From assembly GCA_050013255.1 (NCBI GenBank), contig JBEKFP010000003.1:187434-251433 (forward strand): a DNA stretch of 64,000 nt, given 5' to 3'. The stretch is from Candidatus Bathyarchaeia archaeon. GTDB taxonomy: Archaea; Thermoproteota; Bathyarchaeia; 40CM-2-53-6. Of the stretch, positions 33,935 through 53,968 are shown piece after piece (position 1 is the first letter of the stretch; each line of letters opens with the position of its first letter). Under the pieces are notes generated by a model. It was given only the letters and a program-made list of their open reading frames with translations, was not told the origin of the DNA and searched no databases. Made by a program: the position numbers and the translations under genes.

Positions 33935-34020
33935 GCTGTACTTCCAGGCTAGAATCAGCAACCAATTTTCTGACATCGCTCCAACACGCCGTTACTGTTC
34001 AGCAGGTTTAGTCGTTTTTC

Positions 34021-34127
34021 GAGTGTGTGATACTAGTGGTGCGACCGTCGTAATTTGAACCGTCGTTCAGGTCGTCCTTGTGTGTGTGGTATCAGTGGTG
34101 CGAGCACCCAAATTTGAACCACCAGAC
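34021..34127 (+). repeat. Two tandem island repeat units (tRNA-3'-end mimic)
   Basis: GTGTGTGATACTAGTGGTGCGACCGTCGTAATTTGAACCGTCG and GTGTGTGTGGTATCAGTGGTGCGAGCACCCAAATTTGAACCACC. TGGTGCG is the reverse complement of CGCACCA, and AATTTGAACC is the reverse complement of the T-loop GGTTCAAATT. Confidence 0.8.
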
Positions 34128-34136
34128 ATAAGGGGG

Positions 34137-34808
34137 CTATGGGAGTGTGATGCCGAATACACCTACGGCTCCTCGTATGAGGAATGAGATGCCAATGGCT
34201 CCCATAAGTATGTCCATGACTTTTCCAGTTATTACCATGACTGATGGCTTCAGGACTTTCATGAGTCTACTGCTCAAACTGAACAGTAACCAAACGATCA
34301 CGCAGTCAACCACAATCGCGACTGCCATGCTGAAATCCATCCACCCCTTCGCGGCTCCATACTGAGGATTGTTGAGTACCATAACTGTCGCAATCGCCCC
34401 TGGTCCAGCCAATAGTGGAATAGCCAACGGGAAAACGGCTATACTGTCAGTAACGCCACTTGACAGGGTGCGCCCCCTCCTCCTGTATAGGGATTTGGCC
34501 GCGCTCTGGACTTCGGATGAGGCGACATCTTTGACCGCGAAGACGAGAATGAATACGCCTCCCGCGATCATCACGGAATTGAGAGTGATTTGGAGGGCGC
34601 CTAGGATTGCGTCGCCCAAGTACGCGAACACCAACAGTACCGCTATGGCGACTGTAATCGTCTTCCTGGCAATCGCAGCCTTCCGTTCCCCTGTGGCCCC
34701 AGCTGTAAGCCCCTGAAAGAACGGAATAACCCCGAGTGGGTTTAGGATGACGAATAGTGTAATCAGGGATTCGGTAAGGTCCTGCAGAAAGCCGGTCGAG
34801 AATGACAA
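34137..34808 (-). CDS. MarC-family (UPF0056) integral membrane protein
   Basis: 223 aa and polytopic, with the NPLGVIPFF motif. Confidence 0.85.
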   Translation of the reverse strand: MSFSTGFLQDLTESLITLFVILNPLGVIPFFQGLTAGATGERKAAIARKTITVAIAVLLVFAYLGDAILGALQITLNSVMIAGGVFILVFAVKDVASSEVQSAAKSLYRRRGRTLSSGVTDSIAVFPLAIPLLAGPGAIATVMVLNNPQYGAAKGWMDFSMAVAIVVDCVIVWLLFSLSSRLMKVLKPSVMVITGKVMDILMGAIGISFLIRGAVGVFGITLP

Positions 34809-34850
34809 AACGTCAACACGCCTACCGTAATGCGCTCGGGGCTACCTAAA

Positions 34851-35038
34851 TGTGTGTGTAGGTAGTGATGGTGCGGGCGCCGTAAATTGAACCGTCGTTC
34901 GTCGTCAAAAAAATGTGTGTGTGGGTCTTATGGTGCGAGCATCGCAAATTGAACCGTCGTCGTTCGTCCGTCAGGATGGAATAGTTAGAATGGCCTTCGT
35001 AAGAAGGAGTGCGGGTATGCTGGTGCGCGCACACACAC
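34851..35038 (+). repeat. Two more tandem repeat units plus a GGGTATGCTGGTGCGC/GCACACACAC junction
   Basis: TGTGTGTGTAGGTAGTGATGGTGCGGGCGCCGTAAATTGAACCGTCGTTCG; TGTGTGTGTGGGTCTTATGGTGCGAGCATCGCAAATTGAACCGTCGTCG; then GGGTATGCTGGTGCG (35013-35027) followed by CGCACACACAC. Confidence 0.8.
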
Positions 35039-35530
35039 TGCCTCATCGTCGAGCTGAAGGAACCACGCCCCCGCCGTCCGTAACTAACTAATGACCCCTC
35101 TCTGAAAAAGGGCATGAAGAAGTACTAACTCTAACGTCGCCTCTAGTCTGCGTTTCCACGTATCGTGAATTTCTTCGAGTGAGTTTGTCAGTCTACGACC
35201 TGGACCGTAACACTTTTCGTTGATAATGATTTAGGAGCCTTCTGATTAGGGCCAAGTCTTGTTCAATTCTTGGTAGATTCTGTTTTAGAATTGGTTCCGT
35301 CATCGCCCTGGCCGGGGCTCGGGACTTGTTAGCAATTGGCACAGAGTCAGGTTCTTTCTCAAAAGTTTTCTGGCCTGAAGGTCACTTATTCAACTGTAGA
35401 GAGGCCTGGTAGGCGAGGCAGGCGCGTTGACCCTCGCCTGCGAGATACATTCTGTATATTGGCAACCATTAAACCGACTTGACGTTGTACTCTGTTCTAT
35501 ACCGATACGAAGGAAGGGTGATTTCAACCA

Positions 35531-35731
35531 TTGAGCCACCAGTGTAAATTGTGTCACCCACCTAAGATATTTCGATCAATCGACCGACTGCATGAACATC
35601 ATTGGACGACTCATCGACGATGGTGCTGCAATGTTTGTCATCATTTGAGTCGACTTCACTCAGGATTTCATGGTTGTGCAGTCTGTGGTTGCAGATACTC
35701 GAAGAAACAGCAAGAGCGCCTTCGTGACTAG
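35531..35731 (+). CDS. Small Cys/His-rich (C2H2-like zinc finger) protein
   Basis: 66 aa with a TTG start. CKLCHPPKIFRSIDRLHEHH fits C-x2-C-x12-H-x2-H, and further Cys/His pairs follow. Confidence 0.4.
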   Translation: MSHQCKLCHPPKIFRSIDRLHEHHWTTHRRWCCNVCHHLSRLHSGFHGCAVCGCRYSKKQQERLRD

Positions 35732-35803
35732 AACTCTTTCAGGGCTTCGGAAGTTGCTTATTCGAGTGTGAGTGCTATGTTGTATCTGAGAGGTGACTAA
35801 TGT

Positions 35804-35920
35804 ATGGCAAAGCAGAGTAGGGGAGCTAAGAAAGCGTGGACGGCTGCTAGAGATAAGAAGGTGTCGAAAGCACGCGAGAAGAAGAAGGAACGAAAAGCCG
35901 CCCTTTCCACGTATCACTAG
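35804..35920 (+). CDS. Small basic protein (38 aa)
   Basis: My translation is MAKQSRGAKKAWTAARDKKVSKAREKKKERKAALSTYH, with GAGGTGA upstream. Below the ORF-track cutoff. Confidence 0.3.
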   Translation: MAKQSRGAKKAWTAARDKKVSKAREKKKERKAALSTYH

Positions 35921-36025
35921 GAACGCTGTTCTGACGTAGCGGGACGCTTGTGAGGATCACGGGAATAGCCTATTCAAGGCAGCAATCATTCCTATCATGG
36001 TGTCTGCTCGTCAAAGGTGACTTGG

Positions 36026-36124
36026 ATGAGAACTTGCCCTAAGTGCGGTCACGAGATAAATGGAAGAGTTTGTGTTGTTAAAGACTGTACTTGTGACTGT
36101 TACTATGGTTTGAAACAACCCTAA
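36026..36124 (+). CDS. Mini zinc-ribbon protein (32 aa)
   Basis: My translation is MRTCPKCGHEINGRVCVVKDCTCDCYYGLKQP, with AGGTGA upstream. Confidence 0.35.
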   Translation: MRTCPKCGHEINGRVCVVKDCTCDCYYGLKQP

Positions 36125-36131
36125 GCCGATG

Positions 36132-36241
36132 AGAATTTTGAACCGTCGATCTCGTGTGTGATTTCATGATTTTGTGATTTTGTCTACGTGTGGGGGGGTA
36201 AGGGTGGTTGGGTCTGGGAGAATGTGTTGTTGTGCGCACCA
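36132..36241 (+). repeat. Composite cassette-junction repeat (type with an ATGATTT-rich module)
   Basis: AATTTTGAACCGTCGATCTC-GTGTGTG-ATTTCATGATTTTGTGATTTTGTCTACGTGTGG-(G/T-rich)-TGTGCGCACCA. By my count, 34 of 41 positions match the repeat at 38524-38564. Confidence 0.75.
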
Positions 36242-36445
36242 TTAGACAATGCCTACTACTCAAAGCCATCCAGGAAAGAGCAACCTGACAATTTGCCGCC
36301 AGAGGAAGAAGGTGAAGCCCAGAAACAATATTGTCACAATTGTAAATGATACATTCATTCGCTTGTATTCAGCCCGCTCACGGAGAAAGCCTCTATGTGA
36401 AATTTTAATTGTACACACAGTAAACGATCATAGGTCTGTGATTTT

Positions 36446-37303
36446 ATGAGTCTTCCGAATTTTCCCGAAAAGATGGAAGGTAGCCTTTTCTTCAGGGAAA
36501 TAATGCCTCAGTTTCTTCCTGAATACAATCCGTTTAAACTTGCTATGCTTGGTTTGATTGTTGAAAAAAAAGGTAAAACCAAGATATATGAAGCATTAAG
36601 GTTTAGTCTTCGTAAGATTCAATGGGTTAAGTTGATGGGCTCAAAAGCCATCCATTTGGAAGAGGAACTACTAAAGGCGGTCGAGCCAAACAGTTTTGTT
36701 TTTGACCCGTTAAGACAAACTGCGCATTCGTTGTGTGTAACCGATTGTCTAATTCATACGAAATCGGCATTAGATTCAATGGCTGTTTTTCTCACTGACT
36801 TGCTTGGATTAGACCAGACGGGTGGAGACAGAGATTTTAAGAAACTTGGATTCAGGGAGTCAGTAAGTCAAAAAGATGCTTTTCTCAAACACGAAATCAA
36901 GAAACTTGAACCTTGGTTCTTAGAATTGCAGGGAGTAAGAGATGAATGGATTCATATCAAGGCAATCGAATCTCTATCTGTTCATGGAAAAAGCGATGTT
37001 GGAATGCTGCCTATTCCGAGAAATATCTACCTTAGTGCTGAAGAACAAAGAAACATACCAATTAATTCAGAGAATTATTGGTCAACAAAAGATTTTGTTG
37101 AACATCATTATGCTCAACTTGCAGAACTATTCGGTGAGATTGTTGACCGTAGTATTCAAATTGAAAACCTGGACTTAGCGGAACCTGTTACTGTTCCTGA
37201 ACACTTTATGAATAATCTGACAATGTTTCCTACACATTCCACCGAGAACATGACTCTCCAAAAAATGAGGGTGTACGTTCCTAAATCTGTGGTCGATTGG
37301 TGA
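36446..37303 (+). CDS. Hypothetical protein with an Rx4H (HEPN-like) motif
   Basis: 285 aa on an AT-rich segment, with the motif GVRDEWIHIKA (R-x4-H). No other recognisable domain. Confidence 0.45.
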   Translation: MSLPNFPEKMEGSLFFREIMPQFLPEYNPFKLAMLGLIVEKKGKTKIYEALRFSLRKIQWVKLMGSKAIHLEEELLKAVEPNSFVFDPLRQTAHSLCVTDCLIHTKSALDSMAVFLTDLLGLDQTGGDRDFKKLGFRESVSQKDAFLKHEIKKLEPWFLELQGVRDEWIHIKAIESLSVHGKSDVGMLPIPRNIYLSAEEQRNIPINSENYWSTKDFVEHHYAQLAELFGEIVDRSIQIENLDLAEPVTVPEHFMNNLTMFPTHSTENMTLQKMRVYVPKSVVDW

Positions 37304-37453
37304 CCTGCAGGAAAACTGATTCTTGGGGAATGGATTGTTGTAAGTCGCACTCACACGATTGAGCCATGGCATCACCCATTGATGCTGAGATTACCTTTTT
37401 CATCGATGAGACCATGGTTGGCTAGAACTATGCTGGGTAAGGTTTTCGTTTCT

Positions 37454-37488
37454 GGGGGGGGTGCGCACCAGCTATAACACGCACACAC
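37454..37488 (-). repeat. Island repeat, inverted orientation
   Basis: GGGGGGGGTGCGCACCAGCTATAACACGCACACAC, which is the reverse complement of GTGTGTGCGTGTTATAGCTGGTGCGCACC. Confidence 0.7.
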
Positions 37489-37625
37489 TTTACTACCGTG
37501 CTGGTCTTGGCTAAGTGTCCCCTAACAACCGCGCTCTCATTTTGGTTTCATTAGCCCTATTTCCACGTAGAACTGGGAATCTTAGATGGTGAGGCTCTAC
37601 TTAATTCGTATACTGACTTGTTTCT

Positions 37626-38489
37626 TTGACGGTGAAACTGGTGAAAACCGCCTACTATTATTTCGCGGTAGAACCGCTGATTGAAAAATACGAAGATGTT
37701 CCCGAAGTAAAGCCTCTGATATCGATACCTGTCAAGACCAAGTCGAAAACATTCGAAGTCTCATTCTTTGCCCTGGGCAACCAACTGCACATGCTTAGGA
37801 TAGCAGTTCCGAACCTGGAAGAGGATAGGATTTCCGAAGAGGATTCGAAGGTCGTTCAGACGCTAAAAGAACATGTTCTCTCGGTGTTACGCATAACTTA
37901 CGACCATGGTGTTAGTTTGTTTCCAATTCATTGGTGGAGCTTCGCTGAGGAAGGAAAGGAATACAGGGCGGGCATTTCAATACGGGAGCAAATAGAGGAA
38001 GCATTCCGCATCAATGCGGGAAACATACGGAACGTTTTCGTGAGTACCTTTCCGCTGAGATATCATATTGCGCTCATATCTGATTCACAGGACAGGAGAA
38101 TCCCATTACAGTACCGATACCTCTCACTTTACAAAATACTCGAACTCGAATTCAAGAAAGGTGGCAGATGGAATCGAATACGTCTCAACGAATTCCTGTC
38201 CAGATTTGAAAAGGAGTTCCAGAAACTTCACAGTGAGAAAATCGAGCTGCGGAATTATCTGCATTCCTTGCGAGACAAATGTGCACACGTTAGGACTGGA
38301 AAGGACATTATTGGCGTCACTCAGCTAAGCGGCAAAGATATCGAAGAGGTTACCAAATTCTTACCTTTCATGGCAGAGTTGTGCTCAACACTCCTAAACG
38401 AGAAATACAAAGACAAAGGATTCTCTATCGTAAAAGGACAACAGTATTCCGAGTTCTTAGCGAAAGGGCAGAACGTACCCATTAACTAA
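37626..38489 (+). CDS. Hypothetical protein with an Rx4H (HEPN-like) motif
   Basis: 287 aa on an AT-rich segment, with the C-terminal motif LHSLRDKCAHVRTG (R-x4-H). Confidence 0.5.
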   Translation: MTVKLVKTAYYYFAVEPLIEKYEDVPEVKPLISIPVKTKSKTFEVSFFALGNQLHMLRIAVPNLEEDRISEEDSKVVQTLKEHVLSVLRITYDHGVSLFPIHWWSFAEEGKEYRAGISIREQIEEAFRINAGNIRNVFVSTFPLRYHIALISDSQDRRIPLQYRYLSLYKILELEFKKGGRWNRIRLNEFLSRFEKEFQKLHSEKIELRNYLHSLRDKCAHVRTGKDIIGVTQLSGKDIEEVTKFLPFMAELCSTLLNEKYKDKGFSIVKGQQYSEFLAKGQNVPIN

Positions 38490-38520
38490 GCTTACCAACG
38501 GAGTCATGGTTGAGAAGGCT

Positions 38521-38656
38521 TTTCGTGTATGATTTTGTAATTTCATGATTTTTTCTACGTGTGGTTGGTTGGTCGTGGTTGGTCATGGTAGTGGTTGTGG
38601 AGCGTAGCAAGGGCGAGCGTAGCGAGGAGGGTGGTTTAGTGGTGCGCACACACACA
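38521..38656 (+). repeat. Composite cassette-junction repeat (paralog of 36132-36241)
   Basis: CGTGTATGATTTTGTAATTTCATGATTTTTTCTACGTGTGG-(GGTTGG-rich; GCGAGCGTAGCGAG)-TAGTGGTGCGCACACACACAG. Confidence 0.75.
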
Positions 38657-38764
38657 GCAAAAAAATGACACACAATTACTAATCTGAGATAATCAATACA
38701 GCTATCAATTCTCAATATGCTTTCATTGATGCTCAGAAAGCAGGCTACAAGTAACACTGGTTTT

Positions 38765-39679
38765 CTATCGTTCGTCTGTCTTAATTCCCGGGAGTTGAAC
38801 AAGGACTACGCCCACAATGACTAAGAGTATTCCCAGAGTCATAACATAGGTGACGCGCTCATCGAGAAAGATCCATGCAAGCACAGCAACCTGCACGAGC
38901 ATACTGTTCTGAATTACTGACAGCTCGTACGCATGGATAGAGCGGAGGACGTGGTTCCAGAGAAGAAAGGCCAAGGCCGTATTGACAACGCCGAGCCACA
39001 ATATTATCAGCAGACCATTCAGAGAAATCGGCCTAAGCCCATCGAATACTGCCGCAAGCAGCACAAGGCCCGCTGTCCCAATTCCCATAGTCAACGTTGT
39101 CAGTTTCAATGACCCAAAGGAGTCAACCCTCTGAATTTTCCTGACTATTATCATGTAAATAGCCCATGAGAGACTCGAAACGATAACGGCTAGGATTCCG
39201 ATTTGCTGTCCCGCGCCCGCCAGTCTCTCCGAGAAGAACGCGTAAGCCCCCAGGAGAGCCACAGGCAAGCCCACCAATTGAAGGCGCGACACTTTTTCTC
39301 TGAGAAGCAGGACCCCCAGCACGAGAACGAAGACCGGCGTAAAGTTGAGCACGAAGGTAGACGTAACTGCTGGGAGATAGAACAAGCCGACGAACTGGAG
39401 ACCCTGAGCAAGAGTGTAGCCACATATCCCTGCCGCGACGAGGAGTACTTTCCCATTCGCCACAGTCGTGCTCTTTCGACCACTCTTCTCAGTCCCCACA
39501 CGTGCGACATACAACATTCCCAAAACGACGAACGCAAGCGTGTAGCGCTCAGCAGCGAAAAGAAAAAGAGGAATTTCAAGCAAACCAAACTTGATTAGAA
39601 CATACGACGATGACCACAAGAAAGTTACCAGAATCGCTTCAGCGTATGCTAGTAGTGGATTCGATTTCGTGAACGGCAC
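38765..39679 (-). CDS. EamA/DMT-family transporter (second copy in the window)
   Basis: 304 aa with 10 TM helices and duplicated EamA halves. Confidence 0.85.
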   Translation of the reverse strand: MPFTKSNPLLAYAEAILVTFLWSSSYVLIKFGLLEIPLFLFAAERYTLAFVVLGMLYVARVGTEKSGRKSTTVANGKVLLVAAGICGYTLAQGLQFVGLFYLPAVTSTFVLNFTPVFVLVLGVLLLREKVSRLQLVGLPVALLGAYAFFSERLAGAGQQIGILAVIVSSLSWAIYMIIVRKIQRVDSFGSLKLTTLTMGIGTAGLVLLAAVFDGLRPISLNGLLIILWLGVVNTALAFLLWNHVLRSIHAYELSVIQNSMLVQVAVLAWIFLDERVTYVMTLGILLVIVGVVLVQLPGIKTDER

Positions 39680-39784
39680 CGCCAGTCACACACTATCATA
39701 ATTAATCTTTCATCTTGCTGCATACTATTCAGTTGCTTCTCACGTTCGTTCAAGCCCCCACAAGGTGCACTGATAACTTATGGA

Positions 39785-39813
39785 GTTGTGTGTGTGACTG
39801 CGCTGGTGCGCAC
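39785..39813 (+). repeat. Island repeat (solo end-like unit)
   Basis: GTTGTGTGTGTGACTGCGCTGGTGCGCAC, followed by the 7-bp inverted repeat GAGTCCA..TGGACTC and an ATATATATTTA box upstream of the methyltransferase gene. Confidence 0.7.
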
Positions 39814-39876
39814 ATATGAGTCCAGTCCTCGTGGACTCAATATATATTTACAGAAGAGACTCAACTCTGTGATGCT

Positions 39877-40593
39877 ATGAAGACTAACATAATCGCATAC
39901 TACAGGAAACATGATCCCTTCTCTAGATATCTAACAACCGACAAGCGAAGGGTGAAACAGATTTATGGGCTTTACACTTCAAACAAACGCCACTTTGGAC
40001 GCAGAGTCTTAGATATTGCGTGTGGAGGCGGAGTCTTAGGCTTCATAGTGGAGAGAGAGGGTCGCTCATACACTGGCGTTGACGTTAATCCTGACATGAT
40101 TTCGTCGGCCAGAACTCATGCAAAGGAGGTCGGGTCAAGAAACCGGTTCATCGAAGGAGATGTAACCCAAATGAAAATCGAAGGAAAATTTGACACCATA
40201 TGCATTCTGGGCAATGCATTATGTCACTTCTCAACGCACGATTTCTCAAGGATCCTTCAGAACACTGCCGCATGTAGCGAAAGAGGCGCTTACTTCATAG
40301 TAGATTATCGAGATATGGTGCGCCTAATGTTTCACAAAAAGTGGAATATCAAGAAAAGGCTTGTACAGAAAGAACGGGGAAGAATCAGCACGACAGAGGG
40401 TTGTGACACAAGAACCGGGTTCGTTCTAGTAACGACTACAGACCTGCGTGGAAAGAGCGAAGTCGGATTCGCTCATGCCATATGGTCGCCATTCATTATC
40501 ACACCCATCATGAATAATCATGGCTGGTCCATGGTAAAGAGAACATTCTCGAAGAGATTGTCTGAATGGCTCGATATCTACCGAAGAACCTAG
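39877..40593 (+). CDS. Class-I SAM-dependent methyltransferase
   Basis: 238 aa with motif I VLDIACGGGVLG and GVDVNPDM. Confidence 0.8.
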   Translation: MKTNIIAYYRKHDPFSRYLTTDKRRVKQIYGLYTSNKRHFGRRVLDIACGGGVLGFIVEREGRSYTGVDVNPDMISSARTHAKEVGSRNRFIEGDVTQMKIEGKFDTICILGNALCHFSTHDFSRILQNTAACSERGAYFIVDYRDMVRLMFHKKWNIKKRLVQKERGRISTTEGCDTRTGFVLVTTTDLRGKSEVGFAHAIWSPFIITPIMNNHGWSMVKRTFSKRLSEWLDIYRRT

Positions 40594-40622
40594 TTGCCAA
40601 AAACGATGAACCGATATTTCTC

Positions 40623-40835
40623 GTGTGTGTGGGTATGCTGGTGCGCCGCCCCCGCCGCCGCCTAGATTAACTTTGTGGTTGGAACGACGGTAGGAACCGA
40701 ACGACGACGGTAGGATTGGAGACGACGGAACGAGTACGACGACGCTAATACGAACGACGGTAGGAACGACGACGACACGCCGATGTTCTATGTTTTATAG
40801 GAATTGAAACACGTGGAAGCAACAGCACAGCTAAA
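40623..40835 (+). repeat. Left terminal inverted repeat (modular)
   Basis: GTGTGTGTGGGTATGCTGGTGCGCCGCCCCCGCCGCCGCC, then a spacer, then three copies of GAACGACGGTAGGA(A) (40682-40780), then AT-rich GATGTTCTATGTTTTATAGGAAT. Confidence 0.75.
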
Positions 40836-40845
40836 CTCGCACAAA

Positions 40846-41358
40846 CTAAAATCGCAGAAGGCTTGCAAGGTATTGAGCAACGGCGAATAGGAAGACGAGA
40901 ACTACGCCTAGCAAGAATGTCAATAGCGCTTGATAGATTCTTGACTGAGATTGCGCCTTGAGTTTCTTCGGGAGACCCGTCACATCTGCGACTAGGTACG
41001 CTAGGAGGTAGAGAGGCGGGAATATCAAAAAGAGCGACGCCGCCTTGAGATGTGCGAGAGCGACAGTCAAAAATATCGTCACCACATATCCTCCTAATTC
41101 TATCGTCATGAGAAACAGCCCCGCTCTAAATATCCAGCAACTTGATGAAACGTTGCCCCTCTCACCCTTTGGGGGATAATCCAATGTTTCCCACAACAAC
41201 AAAACTGCGAGTGCAAAGCTTGTAATTGAAACCAGCTGAACAATTATTTGGTTACCGAAGTGGGCGAGGACTGCTGAAATGCCGCCGAATACACCAAACG
41301 CTTCTAGAAGTTTATCATTAGCTTCAACAAAATCTCGCAGGCTCTTCCTTTGCTCCAA
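40846..41358 (-). CDS. Hypothetical membrane protein (about 4 TM)
   Basis: 170-aa ORF with four hydrophobic segments. It is the last gene of the leftward gene string in the element. Confidence 0.5.
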   Translation of the reverse strand: MEQRKSLRDFVEANDKLLEAFGVFGGISAVLAHFGNQIIVQLVSITSFALAVLLLWETLDYPPKGERGNVSSSCWIFRAGLFLMTIELGGYVVTIFLTVALAHLKAASLFLIFPPLYLLAYLVADVTGLPKKLKAQSQSRIYQALLTFLLGVVLVFLFAVAQYLASLLRF

Positions 41359-41474
41359 ATCTTGACGCTCACCAACCTTCGGGATTCGTTATCCACATCG
41401 AAGGGATTGCACGAAGGAACTACTTAATCCGTATTCTTGGCCCTTTATTCTTATCATGCCAGTATGCGTTGACG

Positions 41475-42580: not shown

Positions 42581-42633
42581 CGCTCAAAACCCGTAAACAC
42601 AGACGACGATAAGGGCGCTGAGAACCGTCTATG

Positions 42634-42954: not shown

Positions 42955-42966
42955 CTAATGCCACGT

Positions 42967-44960: not shown

Positions 44961-44961
44961 T

Positions 44962-46964: not shown

Positions 46965-47297
46965 ATGAGTAATTCTAAAATACCTGCGAGCGGGATACGA
47001 TGGCTGAGTATCCCTATGACCGTTCCCCAGGTCGTTCCATCAGACCTACTCTCAAGGAAGGAGCGCGAAGCACCCACAGACACTAAGCAGAGGATAAGCT
47101 TCAGGGAACTTGCGGAGCGTCGGATCATCACTAAAGGCCTCAACGGAGCGGCCGCCTGGTTGAGGGCTAAGGTAGGAGTTTTCCCAATCGATATCGAGAT
47201 GCAGCAGTGTGGCGATGTCTACGAAATGGTTGTAAAAGTAACATATCGCCCTTTACCACCAATGCCTGAGGTCGTGTATGAACGTCAGGAATCATAA
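46965..47297 (+). CDS. Hypothetical protein
   Basis: Internal Met (MSNSKIPASG) of ORF 46917..47297. No recognisable motif. Confidence 0.3.
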   Translation: MSNSKIPASGIRWLSIPMTVPQVVPSDLLSRKEREAPTDTKQRISFRELAERRIITKGLNGAAAWLRAKVGVFPIDIEMQQCGDVYEMVVKVTYRPLPPMPEVVYERQES

Positions 47298-47480
47298 CAA
47301 CAGAACGAAGAACGACTCGGCGCCATAGTTATGTGAATCCGATGATATCAAATCGAGGCTCAATTCTAACCAACGCTGGCAACAAGTCGATGAGTTCTCT
47401 CTCACTGTTCCAAAACGATTCGGCCCAACTCTCATTAGTTCCCCATCTACAATTCTAAAGAGGCCTTACAGGCGGTTCCC

Positions 47481-47966
47481 ATGTCAGTGAACGTCACGGA
47501 ATCGAGTCTTGATCTCAACACACTCTTGAGCAAACTCGGGTATCAACCCGACCAAATAGGTTCGTTATTGGGTGCTGACGTCCTGATGTTCCCGAAAGAC
47601 TTGGAATCTGCCGAGTCATCGTTTGATGACAAATCAGTATCCATTAAGAAGACCATTGAGAAGCAGCTTCGAATTGAGGTGCTGACCAAGCAGGGCGCTA
47701 AGTCTCATTACGAAGCTCAAAGAGCCGCAGACATCCTTGTCCCTGCATTAGTCTTCTTAGGGGTGCAAACTTTTGATATCGGTAAGGGAATAATCACCAG
47801 CTGGGTTTATGATAGGTATCTCCAGCTACGCAACCGAGGTCTGACACCAAGTGTAGCATTGAAGTTCGTTGTGATTGATAAGAAGAAAGGGATTAGGAAG
47901 GAAGTAAGCTACGAAGGACCGGCCGAGCAATTGCAAGACACTTTGAAGAATCTCAAACTGGATTGA
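47481..47966 (+). CDS. Hypothetical protein (one hydrophobic segment)
   Basis: 161-aa ORF. Its stop overlaps the start of the next ORF, suggesting translational coupling. Confidence 0.45.
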   Translation: MSVNVTESSLDLNTLLSKLGYQPDQIGSLLGADVLMFPKDLESAESSFDDKSVSIKKTIEKQLRIEVLTKQGAKSHYEAQRAADILVPALVFLGVQTFDIGKGIITSWVYDRYLQLRNRGLTPSVALKFVVIDKKKGIRKEVSYEGPAEQLQDTLKNLKLD

Positions 47967-48760
47967 AGTTGCCTAGACTCTCGTCTCTAAGACCCGTTCG
48001 ACCGCGAACCATCACCGTGCTTTCACCGGAGCAGAGGGAAATTCTTGAGAAAGGATTGTCTAACGAGGAAAATGGACACCTTGGTAAAGCTGCTAGTCTG
48101 TTCCAGTCCCTTTATGAACAGATGCAGAGTGCCAACTCTGAAGTCTCGCAAGACTCAGCGTGTATGAAAGCGAACGCTGACTTAGTATTAGCCAGACTGG
48201 AAATCACCCGCAATCGAGACGAAGCGGAGAAACTGTTCAGAAGCACGATATCGGCTCTAGAAGTTGCGCTAAAGATCGATCCGTACTGGGCGGATTATTT
48301 CAATTTACGAGGGAAAATCGTGGCCTACCTGCATACTGATTTCGGCTGCAAGATAGTTCGTAATAGAGGAGTTTGGGAAATCAAATGTATCGATGTATCT
48401 AACGCACTACGAATCCCAGGGATAAGTAGAAGCGAGACTTTTGATCTTGAGTGCTCAATCTGTAAGAAGGACCCAATGTTTTGTCCGCATGTTTCGGGGG
48501 AAGTCTACGATGGCCGCCTAGCTCTAGGCATAGTAAGACATTTGGAAATCAAAGAACTTTCAATAATTACGCCGCCACATGTTCCCGAAGAGCGTACAAT
48601 CGGAATATGGCCTCGACCCTTAACCGACGGCGATATCAGGAAGCTCTATTCGGAGAAGACTGCAAGGCAGATAATAGATTCAGGAGTGATTCGTTGCAAG
48701 GATCTCGTTAGAATAATTCGTAAGAACAATCTGGGCGGTGTGGAATGGGTGCAACATTGA
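47963..48760 (+). CDS. Hypothetical protein with a Cys cluster
   Basis: 265-aa ORF with a TTG start overlapping the upstream stop. Contains CSICKKDPMFCPH. Confidence 0.45.
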   Translation: MKLPRLSSLRPVRPRTITVLSPEQREILEKGLSNEENGHLGKAASLFQSLYEQMQSANSEVSQDSACMKANADLVLARLEITRNRDEAEKLFRSTISALEVALKIDPYWADYFNLRGKIVAYLHTDFGCKIVRNRGVWEIKCIDVSNALRIPGISRSETFDLECSICKKDPMFCPHVSGEVYDGRLALGIVRHLEIKELSIITPPHVPEERTIGIWPRPLTDGDIRKLYSEKTARQIIDSGVIRCKDLVRIIRKNNLGGVEWVQH

Positions 48761-48860
48761 CGAGCAAACAACAACTCAAGGATTGCAGAGTTAGGCATCT
48801 ACCGGAAGAAAGCCCACGCTCTTGGCACTGTCTAAATGCAATCCTCTCGCAATGTACCAA

Positions 48861-49445
48861 TCAGCTTCTTCTGAGTTTCTTATCATATGTGAAATGTTTC
48901 TGAATCAGCGCTCTTGTCAGAAACTCTATGTCCTCATCTTGAGGCAGGAAATCTGATGTTGCTTCGACTATCTTCCCTATGTTTCCCCTTTTGTAAAGGG
49001 CCATTCCCAGAGACATGTGACGGCCAAAGATTCTCGCCAAGAGTTCTTTCTTCCCCCAGAGTAACTGTCTAAATTCCTCTATCTTTCGGTCGTCTGGGAT
49101 ATTTTGATGAAACCCTAGAATCAGGTTCGTCCGTTGAACTCCATTCTTCAGATAAAGAAGGGCCTCGCCAATTCCTTTGTAGAACGCATCCCAGCCCAAT
49201 GACTTACTTCGTTCATCAAACTTGATCAATTTCATTTCATAGCCGTTCAGTCGGTATTGGTTCTGTGAAATCTTGTAGAATTCCAGGGCGTCAATGTCTG
49301 GATTAATCCTCCTTCCTGCTATGGCCGAGACCTTGGGGTACGCTCCATATGGCAAGACAGACTTTAGCAATTCGTCTTCGGAAACAAATCGATCATACGT
49401 CATGGCGTGTGTCATTCGAGAGGCCTTGTGATTGGGCTGGTCCAT
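48861..49445 (-). CDS. Hypothetical protein
   Basis: 194-aa ORF adjacent to the right TIR. No recognisable motif. Confidence 0.4.
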   Translation of the reverse strand: MDQPNHKASRMTHAMTYDRFVSEDELLKSVLPYGAYPKVSAIAGRRINPDIDALEFYKISQNQYRLNGYEMKLIKFDERSKSLGWDAFYKGIGEALLYLKNGVQRTNLILGFHQNIPDDRKIEEFRQLLWGKKELLARIFGRHMSLGMALYKRGNIGKIVEATSDFLPQDEDIEFLTRALIQKHFTYDKKLRRS

Positions 49446-49540
49446 AGGTTTAGTCTACCTGACCAGCGGATTATTCTTTCTGATTTTGATGTTCTGGTAG
49501 TGTTATGTCCGAGCTTAACTACTCACGCGGATGGTTCATC

Positions 49541-49711
49541 ATGTGGTCCTTCATGTTTTATGATTCATAAGAAATCAGGTTCTTATCCTACTCCTGCCGT
49601 TCCTACTCCTACCGTACCGAACAGGTTCCTGCCGTCATTCCTACCCTTCGTGTTGTCACAATCCTAATATTAGCGGCGGCGGGGGCGGCGCACCAACGAT
49701 ACCACACACAC
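49541..49711 (-). repeat. Right terminal inverted repeat (modular)
   Basis: Read inward from 49711 on the minus strand: GTGTGTGTGGTATCGTTGGTGCGCCGCCCCCGCCGCCGC, then a spacer, then ACGG(C/T)AGGA-type short repeats, then the AT-rich near-palindrome (plus strand TCATGTTTTATGATTCATAAGAAATCAGG at 49551-49579). Confidence 0.75.
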
Positions 49712-49778
49712 TTTTCAAACGAACGCAGTCCGATGGTCCGGCGACCGCATCAGTGATACTACAGACTAAGCGCGACTT

Positions 49779-51242
49779 CTATGTTGCTAGGCCACACTGC
49801 TTCCTGAGTTTCTCCATTAGTTCTCGGTATCGAGGGTCGGCCCTTGCCTTCGCGCAGAGAGGTGAGTACATCACGAACAGGGAAATTATCGCATGCTCTT
49901 CAAGGGCCTTGTTCACGTACTGGAAGTATGAGTCGAGGTCTCCGAGCGCGTGGTAGACAAACCCCATGTAGTTGAAGCCTATTGGACCCACCTTGGCATT
50001 CTCAATCTTCTTGATTGCGAGGAGTGCCGTATCTCTGTCGCCTTCCATGGCCGCGACGACCCCTCCCATCCAAGCGACCCTAGAATTGGTGGGATCGAGC
50101 TTCTCAAACTTCGCAAGGAGCTCCTTAGCCTTCTCAAGTTCCCCTTTGGCTAGGTAGTACTCCGTCATTCCCCTGTAGGTCCACGCAGGGGCAATCTGCT
50201 CGTACTTCTTCCAGTGCTCCAACGCCTCCTGCTCCCTCCCCGTATAGAGATACGCTAGCCCCACAAGCCAGGTGAACCGCGGCCTCACGGGGTCTAGGCG
50301 GTATGCTGTCTCGATCTGCCTAACCATCTCCCCCTGGTTTCCCTTGATTCCCTCCACCTCAAACAGTATCCAGTAGGCGTCTGGGAGACTCGGGTTAAGC
50401 TCCAAAGCCTTCCTCGCCTCCGCCTCCGAACCTAAGACATCGTCCTCATCGAAGAGCAAAACAGAAAGCACCGCGTGGGCCTCCGCAAGGTTCGAGTCGA
50501 GATTAAGGGCACGTTCCAATAATTGCCTCGCAGTCGAATGAGAGACATCAAACGGTTCCTTTCCGACGTTGGAAAGATAACTGTGGCACTCTGCCGCGCC
50601 GACGTATGCCCTCGCGAACTTGGGATCCAGTTCGATGGCTTTCTCAAAGAGGCTGATAGCCCGCTCTGTTGTATCTATGCTTACTTCCCGTAGTAGTTCT
50701 CTGCCTTGCAAGAAGTACGTGTACGCCTCAGTGTTCTCGGTAGGCTTCTTCTGTAGGGTTCGCTTCTCAGAGTCGAGTAGCTGGGTCTTGAGCTCTCCCG
50801 CCACCTTCTCAGCTATCTCACTCTGAACGGCGAAGATATCGTCTAAGTTCTTGTCATAGTGGGAGGACCACACGTGTTCTTCCGTTCCCGCGTTGATTAG
50901 CTGAACCGTGACCCTGACCCGGTTACCTGCCTTCCTTACACTGCCTTCGACCACCGACCCGACGCTGAGTTCCTTTGCGATTTCGGAGACATTCTTCTCC
51001 TTCTTCTTGTAATTCATCACTGACGTCCGAGCTATGACCTTCAAACTCTTCACCTGAGAAAGCCTGTCAATCAACTCCTCCGTCATGCCGTCCGCGAAGT
51101 ACTCGTCGTTAGGGTCGGGGCTCATGTTCTTCATGGGCAAAACGGCAATCCGGAGCTTGTCTAGCGTCTGCTGTGCCGTGGAGAACGCGGGGGGAATGAA
51201 GCTCTTCGACCGGGCGAGGTCGGCTGGCTGCAAATGATTCAC
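49779..51242 (-). CDS. TPR-repeat protein with a TolB-N-like N-terminal domain
   Basis: 487 aa. The N-terminal IAVLPMKNMSPDPNDEYFADGMTEELIDRLSQ pattern is followed by multiple TPR units. Confidence 0.75.
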   Translation of the reverse strand: MNHLQPADLARSKSFIPPAFSTAQQTLDKLRIAVLPMKNMSPDPNDEYFADGMTEELIDRLSQVKSLKVIARTSVMNYKKKEKNVSEIAKELSVGSVVEGSVRKAGNRVRVTVQLINAGTEEHVWSSHYDKNLDDIFAVQSEIAEKVAGELKTQLLDSEKRTLQKKPTENTEAYTYFLQGRELLREVSIDTTERAISLFEKAIELDPKFARAYVGAAECHSYLSNVGKEPFDVSHSTARQLLERALNLDSNLAEAHAVLSVLLFDEDDVLGSEAEARKALELNPSLPDAYWILFEVEGIKGNQGEMVRQIETAYRLDPVRPRFTWLVGLAYLYTGREQEALEHWKKYEQIAPAWTYRGMTEYYLAKGELEKAKELLAKFEKLDPTNSRVAWMGGVVAAMEGDRDTALLAIKKIENAKVGPIGFNYMGFVYHALGDLDSYFQYVNKALEEHAIISLFVMYSPLCAKARADPRYRELMEKLRKQCGLAT

Positions 51243-51467
51243 GATTACCTGACTGCGTATCTAGCTAAGCTTGCCGAGCCGGTTGTTATAGAGCCTTTCC
51301 TCAACTCGCACGCGAGAGACTAGGTGGTTCAGCAGTCACTTCACATTCGTATTGTGACGAATCATCGTTCCGTATTCTCTCGTTCTTTAGGTCTTGTTTC
51401 TTGTAGGAAATCGTATGGTATTATTGGTCAGCATGTTTGTATTGGCATTGTCGTACGTGACGTCCAA

Positions 51468-51646
51468 GCGTCATGTTTTATGATTCATAGAACATCAGGC
51501 TACCGCCACTAAGAGAATGTTGTGCGAGCGAAGCGAGCACCAAGCTAACCAAGTAAGCGAGCGAAGTGATCTTCAACAGGTTCCAACTTCGGGCGGCGGC
51601 GGCGGGGGCGGGTATGCTGGTGCGGGCGAGCGGATTTGAACTCTCG
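51468..51646. repeat. Second copy of right-end-type modules fused to a tRNA-3'-end-like unit
   Basis: TCATGTTTTATGATTCATAGAACATCAGG (51471-51499; the first 19 nt are identical to 49551-49569); GCGAGCGAAGCGAG-type module; GGCGGCGGCGGCGGGGGCGG; then GGGTATGCTGGTGCG (51610-51624) and GGCGAGCGGATTTGAAC. Confidence 0.7.
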
Positions 51647-51659
51647 TTTGGGGGAGAGC

Positions 51660-51680
51660 TTGGTGCGGCCGCCGGGATTC
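51660..51680 (-). repeat. Duplicate of the 3' end of tRNA-Gly (att-like direct repeat)
   Basis: TTGGTGCGGCCGCCGGGATTC is identical to 53873-53893, the 3' acceptor/T-arm of the intact tRNA on the minus strand. Confidence 0.85.
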
Positions 51681-51691
51681 AGGTCAGCCTT

Positions 51692-52633
51692 TCAGGGCTC
51701 GGGATAGGTGTATGACGGGTAGATCCTTAGCGGTGTTCCAGGTTTTATGACGGCTTGGGCTTCAGCGTTTAGCAGGTAGCGCCCAGCAGGATCAGCGCTG
51801 CCCGCCTCCGCAAAAAGCTTGACAACGAAAGGTTTCGATTCGGCCCGCCGGTAGAAAATCTGAGCCTCATTCGGGCGTGTTCTAACGTACCTCCTCCAAA
51901 GCTGCTCGATGGGCTCAGTTCGCGCAAATGACCTGTCCATGAATTCGAAGAACCTTGCTAACTCCGATCTTCGGGGAAACCGACCGTAATGCTGCGAAAG
52001 TTCCTCATATGCTCCAAGGAAGTATTCCTGTAATGAGGCAAACCGCCGGTCCCTTAGGTACCCTTTGAAGAGCTCGATAAACTCTTGGAGCAGTCGATTT
52101 ATGCGTTTATCGACTTGCCCGTGATTCGGTTGCGCTACGGGTAACTTGTCGGGCACGATTTCCCTTACCAAACCAAGTTTTCCGTTACCGGAAATTGCTA
52201 GGCCAGCTTTGCTTACCGTTCCATGAATCTCGCGTATCGCCTCGACCATGAGATGGTTCTCATACATCTCGATTTCGAGAGCATGATCCTGCCTGAAGAT
52301 TTCCGCCATTCTTTCCCACACAACCTCGTAACGTTTTCTCCGCATATCCAAACCAATTCCGGGGCGATCTCTCAACAGCCCCGCCTTTCGGAGGTCCGAA
52401 AGTTGCAGACTCACGGCGAACTTCGATTTACCCGTAAACGCTGATATTTCAGAAGGCGAGTTCGTACCCTTTGCCACTGCGACGAAGAGCTCACTCAGAG
52501 CTTGAGAACGAAGCGCCTTCCGGACGCGTCTAATCTCGCCGCGCAACGGGTCGCCGGAATCAACTTTAACCTCCATTGCAACGCGCCTTCCCCACAGCTG
52601 CCGTGCAAGAACCGTTGGTTTTGTTTTTGGCAT
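51692..52633 (-). CDS. Winged-helix (ArsR-like) domain protein
   Basis: 313 aa. The N-terminal SPSEISAFTGKSKFAVSLQLSDLRKAGLL looks like HTH plus wing. The rest is uncharacterised. Confidence 0.5.
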   Translation of the reverse strand: MPKTKPTVLARQLWGRRVAMEVKVDSGDPLRGEIRRVRKALRSQALSELFVAVAKGTNSPSEISAFTGKSKFAVSLQLSDLRKAGLLRDRPGIGLDMRRKRYEVVWERMAEIFRQDHALEIEMYENHLMVEAIREIHGTVSKAGLAISGNGKLGLVREIVPDKLPVAQPNHGQVDKRINRLLQEFIELFKGYLRDRRFASLQEYFLGAYEELSQHYGRFPRRSELARFFEFMDRSFARTEPIEQLWRRYVRTRPNEAQIFYRRAESKPFVVKLFAEAGSADPAGRYLLNAEAQAVIKPGTPLRIYPSYTYPEP

Positions 52634-52699
52634 GTGGGAAATTAACTAGCAAACGGTATAAGTAGTTAATTGACCCCTTAACTATCTCGTGATGGAAAA

Positions 52700-53260
52700 A
52701 TGGCTAACGCAGACTCGATGAAGGGGACCATCACCAAGGTCTTCCAAGTAAACGCTCCCCCGGAACGCGTTTACAGAGCGTTTACGGACAAAAAGGATAT
52801 GGTGGAGTGGATGTCGGATCATTTTGAAATTGATGCCAGGAAGGGAGGAAAGTTTCAGATGGGGAAGGAATCGGACGGCTTCGTTACAACGGGGGAGTTT
52901 CTTGAAGTCGTGCCAAACCAGCTACTCACTTATACCTGGAGAATGAATGGGTACGAAAAGAACACTGGGAAGCGTATCCCGAACTGGTCCGATGAAAACC
53001 CGTCGAAGGTTACGGTGAAGTTCGAAAAAGCGGGCAGGGGTACAAGGATCACAGTTACCCACGAAGGGTTCCCAGAACGAGATGAGGAATACTGGGCGCA
53101 TGAGGTGGGATGGGAGATGCTGGGTGGTGAGGTTTTGAAGTACTACCTAGAGCACTCTCAGGAGGAATTTGAAAGATGGTGGAAAGAAAACGAAGCGTCG
53201 TGGCAGGAACGCTGGCAGAAAAAGGTAGATGCACGAGCCAAGTCATCCCCTATTGCATGA
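52700..53260 (+). CDS. SRPBCC/AHSA1-family protein
   Basis: 186 aa. VNAPPERVYRAFTDKKDMVEWM and VTHEGF are typical of the Aha1/START-like fold. Confidence 0.75.
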   Translation: MANADSMKGTITKVFQVNAPPERVYRAFTDKKDMVEWMSDHFEIDARKGGKFQMGKESDGFVTTGEFLEVVPNQLLTYTWRMNGYEKNTGKRIPNWSDENPSKVTVKFEKAGRGTRITVTHEGFPERDEEYWAHEVGWEMLGGEVLKYYLEHSQEEFERWWKENEASWQERWQKKVDARAKSSPIA

Positions 53261-53282
53261 TGGCAAGAGGTGAGAAAAGAGA

Positions 53283-53702
53283 ATGGTGAAAGTAACTGAT
53301 GAAGGACTATTTCCGGCACCACGCGAAAAAGTCTGGCGCCTTATTGAAGCCCACGGAACAGACCCACAAGGCATACACCCCGCGATGAAATCCGCAAAGC
53401 CACTAAACAAAGAAGGCAGCATGGTGGAACAACAATGGGACATGAACGGACAGAATGTCAGAATGGTTTTGAAAGTAACTCCGGCCCCACCCGACAAGTT
53501 GACCCTGGAGTTTCTCGAAGGGCCCGTCACAGGCAAAATGGTAAACACCTACACCGAAGTGGCAGGTGGAACCAAAGTAGTCACGGAATGTGACATGAAA
53601 TCACAAGTCATGGACGACAAACAAGTCGAAAGCACTGTTAGACAAATCCTCGACAACGGCTTCGCCGACGACGTCCGCTACCTAAACACAAAAATGAAGT
53701 AG
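53283..53702 (+). CDS. SRPBCC-superfamily protein
   Basis: 139 aa with a START/polyketide-cyclase-like size and pattern (PREKVWRLIEAH...). Paralogous context with the upstream gene. Confidence 0.55.
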   Translation: MVKVTDEGLFPAPREKVWRLIEAHGTDPQGIHPAMKSAKPLNKEGSMVEQQWDMNGQNVRMVLKVTPAPPDKLTLEFLEGPVTGKMVNTYTEVAGGTKVVTECDMKSQVMDDKQVESTVRQILDNGFADDVRYLNTKMK

Positions 53703-53873
53703 CTGAGAAAGCAGGCGTACTAGCGCCAGTTTTCTCGGCACCCAACCTTTTCTTGGCTGTAGCAATTCTTGGCTAGCAATATTGTAGCCGCCTTCAAGCT
53801 GTGGATTTGCCTCAACTGGTTTTGTCCCCAATATTCGCATTGATGAAGCGATAAGGTATCGTTGCAGAGAGTT

Positions 53874-53968
53874 TGGTGCGGCCGCCGGGATTCGGACCCG
53901 GGTCGTTGGCTTGGAAGGCCAATGGACGCGTAAACGCAATGTCCTAGACCAGGCTAGACTACGGCCGC
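53874..53968 (-). tRNA. tRNA-Gly (anticodon UCC) with a 17-nt non-canonical intron between the D-arm and anticodon stem; CCA encoded
   Basis: Reverse complement: GCGGCCG-TA-GTCT-AGCCTGGTCTA-GGAC-A-[TTGCGTTTACGCGTCCA]-TTGGC-CTTCCAA-GCCAA-CGAC-CCGGG-TCCGAAT-CCCGG-CGGCCGC-A-CCA. All four stems pair once the bracketed 17 nt are removed. Confidence 0.85.

Follow-up and report, generated by a model that had tools for sequence, protein, structure and literature searches.

Repeats resembling a tRNA 3' end in a Bathyarchaeia chromosome very probably belong to a nest of casposon-family transposons

The 64-kb stretch of DNA analysed here (the window) comes from a Candidatus Bathyarchaeia archaeon (contig JBEKFP010000003.1) and contains, at 34-54 kb, blocks of unrelated genes set apart by short repeats that resemble the 3' end of a tRNA. 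Among the genes are those for a MarC transporter, an EamA protein, a methyltransferase, a Cas1 homologue and a TPR protein, and a tRNA-Gly gene lies at the right-hand border (Table 1). In a sequence-only reading this segment had been taken for an integron-like array of cassettes inserted next to the tRNA gene. According to our analysis, the repeats are very likely casposase targets, 15-bp target-site duplications (TSDs) and transposon end tips, and the segment can with high confidence be regarded as a nest of casposon-family transposons in the Bathyarchaeia chromosome.

The repeats are strongly concentrated in this part of the window. Sequences of the form GTGTGTG-N7-TGGTGCG, with up to two mismatches, occur nine times in the 64 kb (0.32 expected; nine attained in 0 of 100 shuffles), and eight of them fall within 34023-49709, while the other 44 kb hold a single weak match with two mismatches. 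Similarly, the heptamer TGGTGCG is found 17 times against 6.9 expected, with 14 copies in 34.0-53.9 kb, and the T-loop-like A(A/T)TTGAACCRTCG four times against 0.34 expected. Members of one repeat family are indeed present in every one of the nine junction intervals that had been listed, and two further observations of the sequence-only reading are borne out: the units lie in both orientations and are sometimes tandem (pairs at 34023/34082 and 34855/34917), and the 15-mer GGGTATGCTGGTGCG has exactly three copies in one orientation, at 35013, 40631 and 51610. The perfect palindrome TGGTGCGCACCA also described there is not present as such, the nearest sequences being GGTGCGCACCA at 37460 and TGCGCACCA at 36233. 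Moreover, the repeats do recur as claimed, but they are not one unit; they are composites of end tips, TSD and target half. The locus is not an assembly artefact: many peat metagenomes independently yielded identical or near-identical contigs. When eight of the units were folded as single-stranded DNA they did no better than shuffled sequences (z from -1.39 to +0.90). No CRISPR-like family occurs among the repeat families listed for 33-55 kb, and a regular repeat-spacer pattern is missing, the spacings between copies of the 15-mer being 5.6 and 11 kb, and different 15-mers standing at the other junctions.

The three copies of GGGTATGCTGGTGCG (TSD_A in Table 1) separate two tandem elements. To the left, a 16-nt identical direct repeat at 35013 and 40631 encloses the CACACAC/GTGTGTG tips of a composite without Cas1, in which the 15-mer at 35013 is followed by CGCACACACAC and the copy at 40631 is preceded by GTGTGTGT. 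Its contents are a small-ORF block, two paralogous 285-aa genes, EamA and the methyltransferase, with older junctions between them; the EamA and methyltransferase cassettes both bear tips of the CACACAC/GTGTGTG type. To the right, a casposon carries 17-nt perfect inverted repeats as its tips (40646-40662 and 51595-51611) and is flanked by a duplication identical at 15 of 15 positions (40631-40645 and 51610-51624). Its left end is preceded by GTGTGTGT and GGGTATGCTGGTGCG, and GGGTATGCTGGTGCG and GGCGAGCGGATTTGAAC follow its right end. The order in the window is TSD / element / TSD / element / TSD / target half. The identity of the three copies of the duplication shows that one target was used at least twice, for the composite at 35028-40630 and for the casposon at 40646-51609. 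The same pattern of tandem casposons sharing a TSD is seen in Methanosarcina (PMC4779613), and the analogy with tandem casposon arrays drawn earlier is apt.

The Cas1 element had previously been delimited as a 9.1-kb unit (40623-49711), whereas it actually spans 10,964 bp and includes the TPR gene. A 9.1-kb unit with a 55-nt inverted repeat was rejected because its supposed terminal inverted repeat takes in flanking target sequence; it is at 51610 that the 15-bp duplication and the remaining target half are found. The segment 49657-49711, tried as the right end of the element, was reread as an internal junction, and it has an intact counterpart at 16515-16560 of L010 (labels beginning with L denote comparison loci). 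Besides Cas1, the genes of the casposon are those for an HNH endonuclease, a TIR-domain protein, several unknowns and the TPR protein.

Table 1. Coordinates of features in and around the 34-54 kb segment of the window
Feature	Position	Strand	Details
Two tandem unoccupied target-like units, J1 and J2	34020-34127	+	Each GTGTGTG + N7 + TGGTGCG + N8 + AATTTGAACC; match the target consensus
MarC/NAAT transporter gene	34137-34808	-	TIGR00427, 1e-39; between two unit pairs
Two tandem unoccupied units, J3 and J4	34851-34966	+	J4 is GGGTCTTATGGTGCG followed by AGCATCGCAAATTGAACC, best fit to the target consensus
TSD_A copy 1 (GGGTATGCTGGTGCG)	35013-35027	+	CACACAC-type end tip directly after
Cas1-less composite element	35028-40630	+	TSD_A-flanked; CACACAC/GTGTGTG tips, 9/10 complementary
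Internal relic junction	36132-36241	.	T-loop-like half TTTTGAACCGTCG, GTGTGTG tip, 69-nt end module, inverted TGGTGCG
Relic end, third tip type CACCCCCCCCAG (37452-37463)	37452-37487	-	Then inverted TSD-like 15-mer and inverted GTGTGCGTG box
EamA single-gene cassette	38647-39796	+	Gene 38765-39679, minus strand; tips CACACACAC / GTGTGTGTG; between two N7-TGGTGCG junctions
SAM methyltransferase single-gene cassette	39811-40630	+	Gene 39877-40593; left tip CACATATG degenerate; right tip GTGTGTGT
TSD_A copy 2	40631-40645	+	Common to both tandem elements
Cas1-bearing PolB-less casposon composite, 10,964 bp	40646-51609	+	CCGCCCCCGCCGCCGCC tips
HNH endonuclease gene	42967-43464	-	PF13392, 2.4e-15
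Casposase (Cas1 homologue), 404 aa	43746-44960	+	PF01867, 1e-52
TIR-domain (ThsB-like) protein	44962-45726	+	Only clear defence-type cargo
Internal junction	49657-49711	-	CCGCC-type tip 49657-49688, inverted TSD-like 15-mer 49689-49703, inverted GTGTGTGT 49704-49711
TPR protein gene	49779-51242	-	Inside the outer casposon
Casposon right end	51468-51609	+	Subterminal GCGAGCGAAGCGAGC repeats, conserved in L010 3440-3500
TSD_A copy 3 and remaining target half GGCGAGCGGATTTGAACTCTCG	51610-51653	+	TSD at 51610-51624; pseudo-tRNA T-arm side
tRNA-Gly 3'-end copy, 27 nt, 1 mismatch	51654-51680	+	Includes 7 nt of tRNA flank
tRNA-Gly(UCC) gene	53874-53968	-	Anticodon read from sequence; 3' end resembles the target consensus

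Elements of the same build were sought with a script that looks for direct repeats with inverted repeats immediately inside them. This gave 22 TSD-flanked elements in 21 sequences, with direct repeats of 14-16 nt and inverted tips directly inside, the general scheme being flank / 15-bp duplication / inverted tip...inverted tip / 15-bp duplication / T-loop-like half. For instance, to the left of Cas1 in L006 and L007 TGGTGCG is followed by CCGCC(C/G)CCGCCGCC..., the reverse complement of which lies ~7-9 kb rightward; at that right end the 14-15 nt preceding the left end recur and are followed by N8-AA(A/T)TTGAAC. The duplications on the two sides are identical or differ by one mismatch in at least 12 independent elements, the T-loop-like half adjoins the right-hand duplication in 20 of the 22, and 15 to 20 of the first 20 nt are complementary between the ends of the 13 elements that contain Cas1. 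Three types of end tip, CCGCC..., CACACAC... and CACCCCCCAG... (written out: CCGCCCCCGCCGCC, CACACACACAC and CACCCCCCCCAG), share one target and account for six, 11 and five elements, respectively; the CACCCCCCCCAG type, of which the window has a relic, occurs in L037, L045, L056, L079 and L081. A possible fourth type is hinted at by TCGTCGTC, which precedes the duplication in four other elements.

The consensus of the 22 reconstructed empty sites consists of (tgtGTgTGt)GGGTct..TGGTGCG followed directly by gGCg.C..AAtTTGAACc. Read in the sense of a tRNA it is GTTCAAATT-N5-GCY-CGC-A-CCA plus 8 nt, and its spacing (T-loop 7 + 5 + 7 + A + CCA) is exactly that of a tRNA. The 15-bp TSD GGGTnnnnTGGTGCG corresponds in this sense to CGCACCA plus 8 nt, and the staggered cut begins at CGCA. 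Hence each recurring motif can be given a place: TGGTGCG forms the conserved end of the segment that is duplicated, AATTTGAACC represents the leader-like half of the target, which is not duplicated, and GTGTGTG is mostly the tip of the CACACAC...GTGTGTG element type or of its relics. An obligatory role of GTGTGTG in the target is unsupported, since it is absent from eight of the 22 left flanks. In Methanosarcina mazei the TSD has 14 bp and starts with a conserved 5'-CGCA, the last 4 bp of tRNA-Leu, and the target requires ~30 bp of upstream tRNA (PMC6977970, PMC4779613). Judged by sequence, and on comparison with PMC6977970, PMC4779613 and PMC5137440, the target layout found here is the one established experimentally for the two family-2 casposases studied, namely a TSD starting with CGCA plus ~18 bp of T-loop.

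No tRNA genes were detected in 40 related loci with ARAGORN, or with Rfam in the eight of these also scanned in that way. Real tRNA genes as the general target are therefore rejected, and the position next to a tRNA gene, which was part of the sequence-only reading, is incidental. Instead, pseudo-tRNA 3' ends that stand alone serve as targets, and some of them lie within the ends of the elements themselves. Some 15-mers ending in TGGTGCG (GGGTATGC-, GGGTCTAA- and GGGTAGGC-TGGTGCG) recur as duplications in unrelated contigs (the window at 35013/40631/51610, L030, L056 and L053; L007, L018, L042 and L111; L006, L060, L069 and L075), and it seems that the elements carry along target copies or the duplications themselves. 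At 14417-14490 of L111, two GTGTGTG-N8-TGGTGCG halves face each other across 17 nt (CGTCGTCGTCGCCGTCG), which may be a minimal element or an excision scar. L006 also has a second repeat family, TTATGTGTACCGGTAAATTGGGGTCAGAATCCCCTGCCCCA, with four direct copies (45-93, 1966-2014, 3363-3411 and 15677-15725) that resemble a tRNA 3' end; these may mark the att sites of a different sort of integrative element that is stacked there too.

The Cas1 homologue of the window aligns over residues 4-395 with the structure of the M. mazei casposase (6OPM; E = 8.4e-77), C-terminal region included, and is far closer to it than to any CRISPR Cas1. Because of this full-length alignment it is predicted to be a family-2-type casposase. 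Its closest match from a named genome belongs to a Candidatus Bathyarchaeota metagenome-assembled genome (MAG; 76% identity), and it has at least 849 relatives at E <= 1e-20, all of ~400 aa, the few organism-named ones being from Bathyarchaeia. No other Cas-family Pfam domains appear in the gene lists covering the window. HNH is a conserved gene of family-2 casposons, the core genes of which are listed in PMC4779613. A homologue of the TPR protein (37% identity) adjoins a casposon in L006, and its N-terminal motif was also seen by eye in a cassette protein of L052. The cargo had been described as defence-type or transporter genes; the defence part of this description does not hold except for the TIR-domain protein, the sole one that scores as defence. 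The paralogous ~285-aa proteins of the adjacent cassettes 36446-37303 and 37626-38489, one of them with a weak MauJ match, gave no defence-family match in PADLOC or NCBIfam. The 313-aa winged-helix (wHTH) proteins of the window and L006 were considered as the same cargo and proved not to be homologous. Within overlapping casposon ORFs at 42620-42920 lies a 45-nt tandem repeat (5-6 copies, 63-76% identity), which may code for a protein with 15-aa repeats or else be non-coding.

According to Pfam searches of all casposon ORFs in the window and of the largest ORFs elsewhere, PolB is absent from all 13 delimited elements with Cas1, and a hidden or fragmented PolB was rejected on the same searches. 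The largest ORFs of the delimited elements encode a type II methylase, TIR or NTPase-like proteins or unknowns, and the complete element of L018 has only 5,227 bp. When the ORFs of the 13 elements were clustered, Cas1 was the sole gene common to all. Of the seven CACACAC- and CACCCCCC-type elements among them, four to five share a three-gene module (L056 5954-7977 and L085 4975-6753; also L079, L081 and L095). It includes an AAA+/winged-helix ATPase similar to Orc1/Cdc6 (weak Pfam matches only), which is a candidate functional replacement for PolB or a candidate target-selection ATPase.

In a neighbour-joining tree of Cas1 the tip type tracks the Cas1 clade, apart from two CCGCC-type outliers, and this suggests that end recognition may have co-evolved with the casposase. 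The Cas1 of the window falls in the main CCGCC clade while most of the small cassettes are CACACAC-tipped, so these were probably moved by a different casposase from outside the window. The solo Cas1 had been pointed out as the only recombinase-like gene in view; it does belong to the relevant enzyme family, but it is probably not the mover of most of the small cassettes.

Nesting and small Cas1-less units are also found beyond the window. Ends of the CACACAC and CACCCCCC types hold target-like units; those close to the left tip are inverted, and those close to the right tip are direct and often tandem. The CCGCC type has subterminal repeats (ACGACGGTAGGAAC) similar to the reverse-complemented target half (ACGACGGTTCAAAT). 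In L010 a 13-kb CCGCC-type casposon occupies the inverted unit that lies directly inward of the left tip of a CACACAC-type element, and this outer element has a duplication of its own. Tandems sharing a duplication are present in L069, L053 and L030. Unrelated contigs hold Cas1-less units with CACACAC tips and identical duplications (L030, 0.8 kb or 807 nt; L069, 1,288 nt; L006, 1.9 kb; L016, 2.3 kb); these are 0.6-2.3 kb long, and most are filled by a single ORF. Moreover, the 69-nt end module at 36152 recurs in the window at 38523-38591 and in L006 at 6740-6791, where it forms the right end of the TSD-flanked 1.9-kb element. In M. mazei, artificial mini-casposons without Cas1 and PolB transpose and give rise to tandems in vivo (PMC10359463).

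Cassette content differs between strains, as the sequence-only reading had led one to expect, and the difference lies at a unit boundary. Strain L016 is 99.8% identical to the window until 34937 and diverges from the G-box of J4 onward, where it has a different 2.3-kb, TSD-flanked cassette with two genes. The MarC gene is present in all strains seen, L016 included, and has no flanking transposon tips. In nearly all same-species contigs from many samples the cassette content is identical, and the strain variants recovered on the tRNA side all have the same content. In related species, unit arrays are located elsewhere or are absent. For instance, L111, with an oxidase operon 89% identical, has an ~8.9-kb unit-rich array without Cas1 (11140-20030) between an oxidoreductase and an AlaX-like gene, a position different from that of the window array. 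At the syntenic operon of L110, L112 and L113, which have no casposons there, no units were found in the 7.5-20 kb fetched. A search for a clean empty site in relatives by way of the flanking oxidoreductase found none, as synteny stops after the operon.

By analogy with the casposases studied so far, the enzyme would join an element at both ends to a specific target resembling the final ~33 nt of a tRNA on the opposite strand. The T-loop-like half N8-AATTTGAAC would probably have a leader-like role, being recognized by the casposase, and the 15-bp GGGTnnnnTGGTGCG beside it would be cut in a staggered way and thereby duplicated on both sides of the insert. Catalysis would rest with the casposase, which would also act in trans on cassettes without Cas1; that the small cassettes are being mobilised in trans, or were until recently, seems to us rather probable. 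Each insertion would leave an intact duplication and target half at one junction, and the earlier proposal that every event regenerates a tRNA-end-like target is supported in that a target copy is left per insertion. Since the ends carry target-like units and each insertion leaves an intact target, new insertions would land in or beside old ones and pile up, and recombination among the many repeats would then reshuffle the blocks. At the junction 49657-49711, a CCGCC-type casposon may have entered an inverted unit inside an older one; recombination between two co-oriented left ends would then have deleted the intervening stretch, and the TPR gene and right end of the older element (51468-51609) would have stayed. 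Repeated site-specific insertion, also part of the sequence-only reading, is supported by the duplications, the tips and the tandem and nested elements.

Several observations weigh against a nest of casposons as the full explanation. The difference between L016 and the window is a replacement and not a clean pair of filled and empty sites. At many adjacent junctions the N7-8 segments flanking a cassette are not the same, e.g. GGTTTAG on one side of the EamA cassette and ACTGCGC on the other, and these differing flanks require extra steps such as recombination between units, decay or transfer of the duplication together with the element. The MarC block and the block with wHTH and two SRPBCC genes are without transposon tips, no CACACAC-type casposase was found in the window, and the 27-nt tRNA-Gly repeat continues for 13 nt beyond the cut point of the casposase. 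Finally, the comparison loci were all chosen for containing Cas1 and are therefore biased towards casposon neighbourhoods.

The differing flanks also bear on an alternative in which the casposase acts as an integron-like site-specific recombinase. Circles carrying a single 15-mer (GTGTGTG-N7-TGGTGCG as an attC-like site) would recombine at the TGGTGCG boundary by the T-loop-like half, so that successive junctions differ in N7 and the newest cassette adjoins the leader-like half. Non-identical flanking 15-mers are seen around many cassettes in the window and in L039, L042, L052, L053 and L065, the same 15-mers recur in unrelated contigs, and in M. mazei excision leaves a single empty site and re-integration appeared to import the element's own TSD, for which a circular intermediate was proposed (PMC10359463). 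Even so, we consider this alternative unlikely: the identical or one-mismatch duplications of at least 12 independent elements are the signature of staggered-cut transposition, casposases make TSDs by strand transfer in vitro (PMC5137440, PMC6977970), and recombination between repeated units explains mixed flanks equally well. If the duplication were nevertheless transferred through a circular intermediate, the mechanism would come nearer to the integron picture. It also seems improbable that the region is an immobile graveyard of casposons, its blocks produced mainly by homologous recombination, duplication and deletion and its cassettes being decayed casposon fragments. The internal relic junctions, the degenerate tip CACATATG at 39811, the hybrid junction 49657-49711, the identical content of nearly all same-species contigs and the casposon ORFs that are interrupted or shortened in some strains (HNH was not called in L001 and L005) would all fit such a history, but the perfect 15-16-nt duplications and 17-nt tips of the window argue for recent events, intact-tipped single-gene units with identical TSDs recur in unrelated contigs, and L016 has a strain-specific cassette.

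The 27-nt direct repeats at 51654-51680 and 53867-53893, which bracket a 2.2-kb block, resemble an attL/attR pair; they are not a plain TSD, because they extend past the cut point. They could be taken to favour a classical integron or a tRNA-targeting integrase island, where a recombinase encoded elsewhere inserts circles at the tRNA 3' end, with the repeats as its att sites, and M. mazei elements with tyrosine integrases do share tRNA targets with casposons (PMC4779613). We regard this as very unlikely. No integrase is found in the Pfam lists covering ~1.6-64 kb, nor in the 27-nt-bounded block, which encodes a wHTH protein and two SRPBCC proteins; the repeats that flank the elements are 14-16 nt long, stop precisely where the inverted tips start and have Cas1 genes between them; and the other loci gave no tRNA genes. 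The integron/attC reading was rejected for lack of a recombinase in the same lists and of significant hairpins in the units. Least of all can we credit a generic interspersed intergenic repeat (REP- or MITE-like, or promoter or terminator signals) without causal link to the blocks. The units do sit in intergenic spacers, and their G-rich or GT-rich boxes could be signals, but the near absence of matches from the rest of the window, the constant placement of the motifs with respect to inverted tips, duplications and Cas1 genes across 21 sequences and the lack of units at the casposon-free syntenic operons argue against it.

Among known systems, the elements are closest to the family-2 casposons MetMaz-C1 of M. 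mazei and AciBoo-C1 of Aciduliprofundum boonei. Both groups have a full-length homologous casposase, terminal inverted repeats, a TSD of 14-15 bp whose initial CGCA is the terminus of an acceptor strand of tRNA type, a target that includes the adjacent T-loop region, and insertion in either orientation; the window casposon also has the HNH gene. In contrast to family 2, the elements described here lack PolB and so are not self-synthesizing, their targets are free-standing pseudo-tRNA ends, often inside the ends of elements, instead of tRNA genes, their three tip types co-vary with the Cas1 clades, and their cargo is highly variable (TIR, SIR2, restriction-modification, Abi and transporters). 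Of the casposon hallmarks, the casposase, inverted ends, 14-15-bp duplication and CGCA/T-loop target are present and PolB is not. The tandem casposons and solo terminal inverted repeats of Methanosarcina (PMC4779613) and the family-1 tandems of Nitrosopumilus (PMC6563490) likewise show reuse of a target, a shared TSD copy and, often, one decayed partner of which relic ends remain. They have two blocks, whereas here there are at least 5-7, with nesting as well, three end types are mixed, and most members are Cas1-less with one or a few genes. Artificial mini-casposons (PMC5137440, PMC10359463) share with the small units cargo with casposon ends only, integration at the cognate target and tandem formation, but they are built in the laboratory while the units are natural and numerous and carry diverse host-type genes.

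The likeness to integrons is one of outcome and not of mechanism. In both cases mostly single-gene, promoter-poor and unrelated cassettes alternate with a recurring site and differ between strains. However, none of the integron features looked for (IntI, attC hairpins, co-oriented cassettes) was found. The Pfam lists show no tyrosine or serine recombinase, its units fold no better than shuffled sequence, cassette genes lie on both strands, and the inverted tips and target duplications are those of transposons and not of circles recombined at a core site, so the attC analogy fails as a mechanism. Site-specific transposition also builds islands at a single site in Tn7 (attTn7), but no TnsABCD machinery is present here. 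CRISPR arrays share a leader-like element beside a duplicated ~15-bp segment between inserts, and an enzyme homologous to Cas1; they differ in that the nest has no Cas2 and no regular periodicity, and in that its inserts are kilobase cassettes with ends of their own.

Casposons are defined as self-synthesizing transposons that encode PolB, and comprise four families with few members. PolB is present in every casposon family described in the papers cited here (e.g. PMC4779613), and no description of Bathyarchaeial or PolB-less casposons was found in the literature searched, which left most subscription-journal papers outside. A large PolB-less group of Bathyarchaeial casposons with three tip types and many natural mini-cassettes is thus apparently undescribed, and it builds nested and tandem arrays at pseudo-tRNA targets propagated by the elements themselves. 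What is new is a Cas1 clade, with at least 849 database relatives, whose elements have retained casposase, ends, TSD and tRNA-type target but lack PolB in all 13 delimited cases; the clade has diversified into three end types, and many natural cassettes without Cas1 accompany it. If our account is right, casposition needs no polymerase encoded by the element, and the loci offer natural substrates for studying a Cas1 enzyme that reads a site like 'leader + repeat'. They would also document casposase-built arrays of inserts with short duplications, the arrangement invoked for the origin of CRISPR arrays, and reveal a route by which host-type genes (transporter, methyltransferase) and defence genes are shuffled in an abundant class of uncultivated archaea. 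For annotation, this accounts for 'tRNA-fragment' repeats and 'solo cas1' calls in Bathyarchaeia MAGs. We tentatively propose, as a possibility short of an even chance, that this undescribed branch serves as a cassette platform: Cas1-less mini-casposons with their own tips, and often their own target copy, would be mobilised in trans by casposases of the matching clade and accumulate in tandem and nested beside the leader-like pseudo-tRNA half, with 15-bp duplications between them. Such a platform would be a casposase-driven functional analogue of integrons and a living example of the leader-repeat-insert arrays proposed to stand between casposons and CRISPR.

Some features of the flanks remain to be described. 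In the tRNA-Gly gene the D arm is separated from the anticodon arm by ~18 additional nt, an intron in a non-canonical place; the tRNA was not nameable by ARAGORN and scores 48 bits with Rfam. The strain contig L104 ends exactly at the 3' end of this gene (53874), which hints at heterogeneity there. The segment 58741-60481, which holds a gene for a DpnI-like restriction endonuclease (PF06044), is absent from L104. On the other side of the window, ~25 kb from the nest, a cluster of core replication genes at 1620-10700 (MCM, GINS/Sld5, RFC large and small subunits, Cdc6/Orc1) may mark an origin-proximal region.

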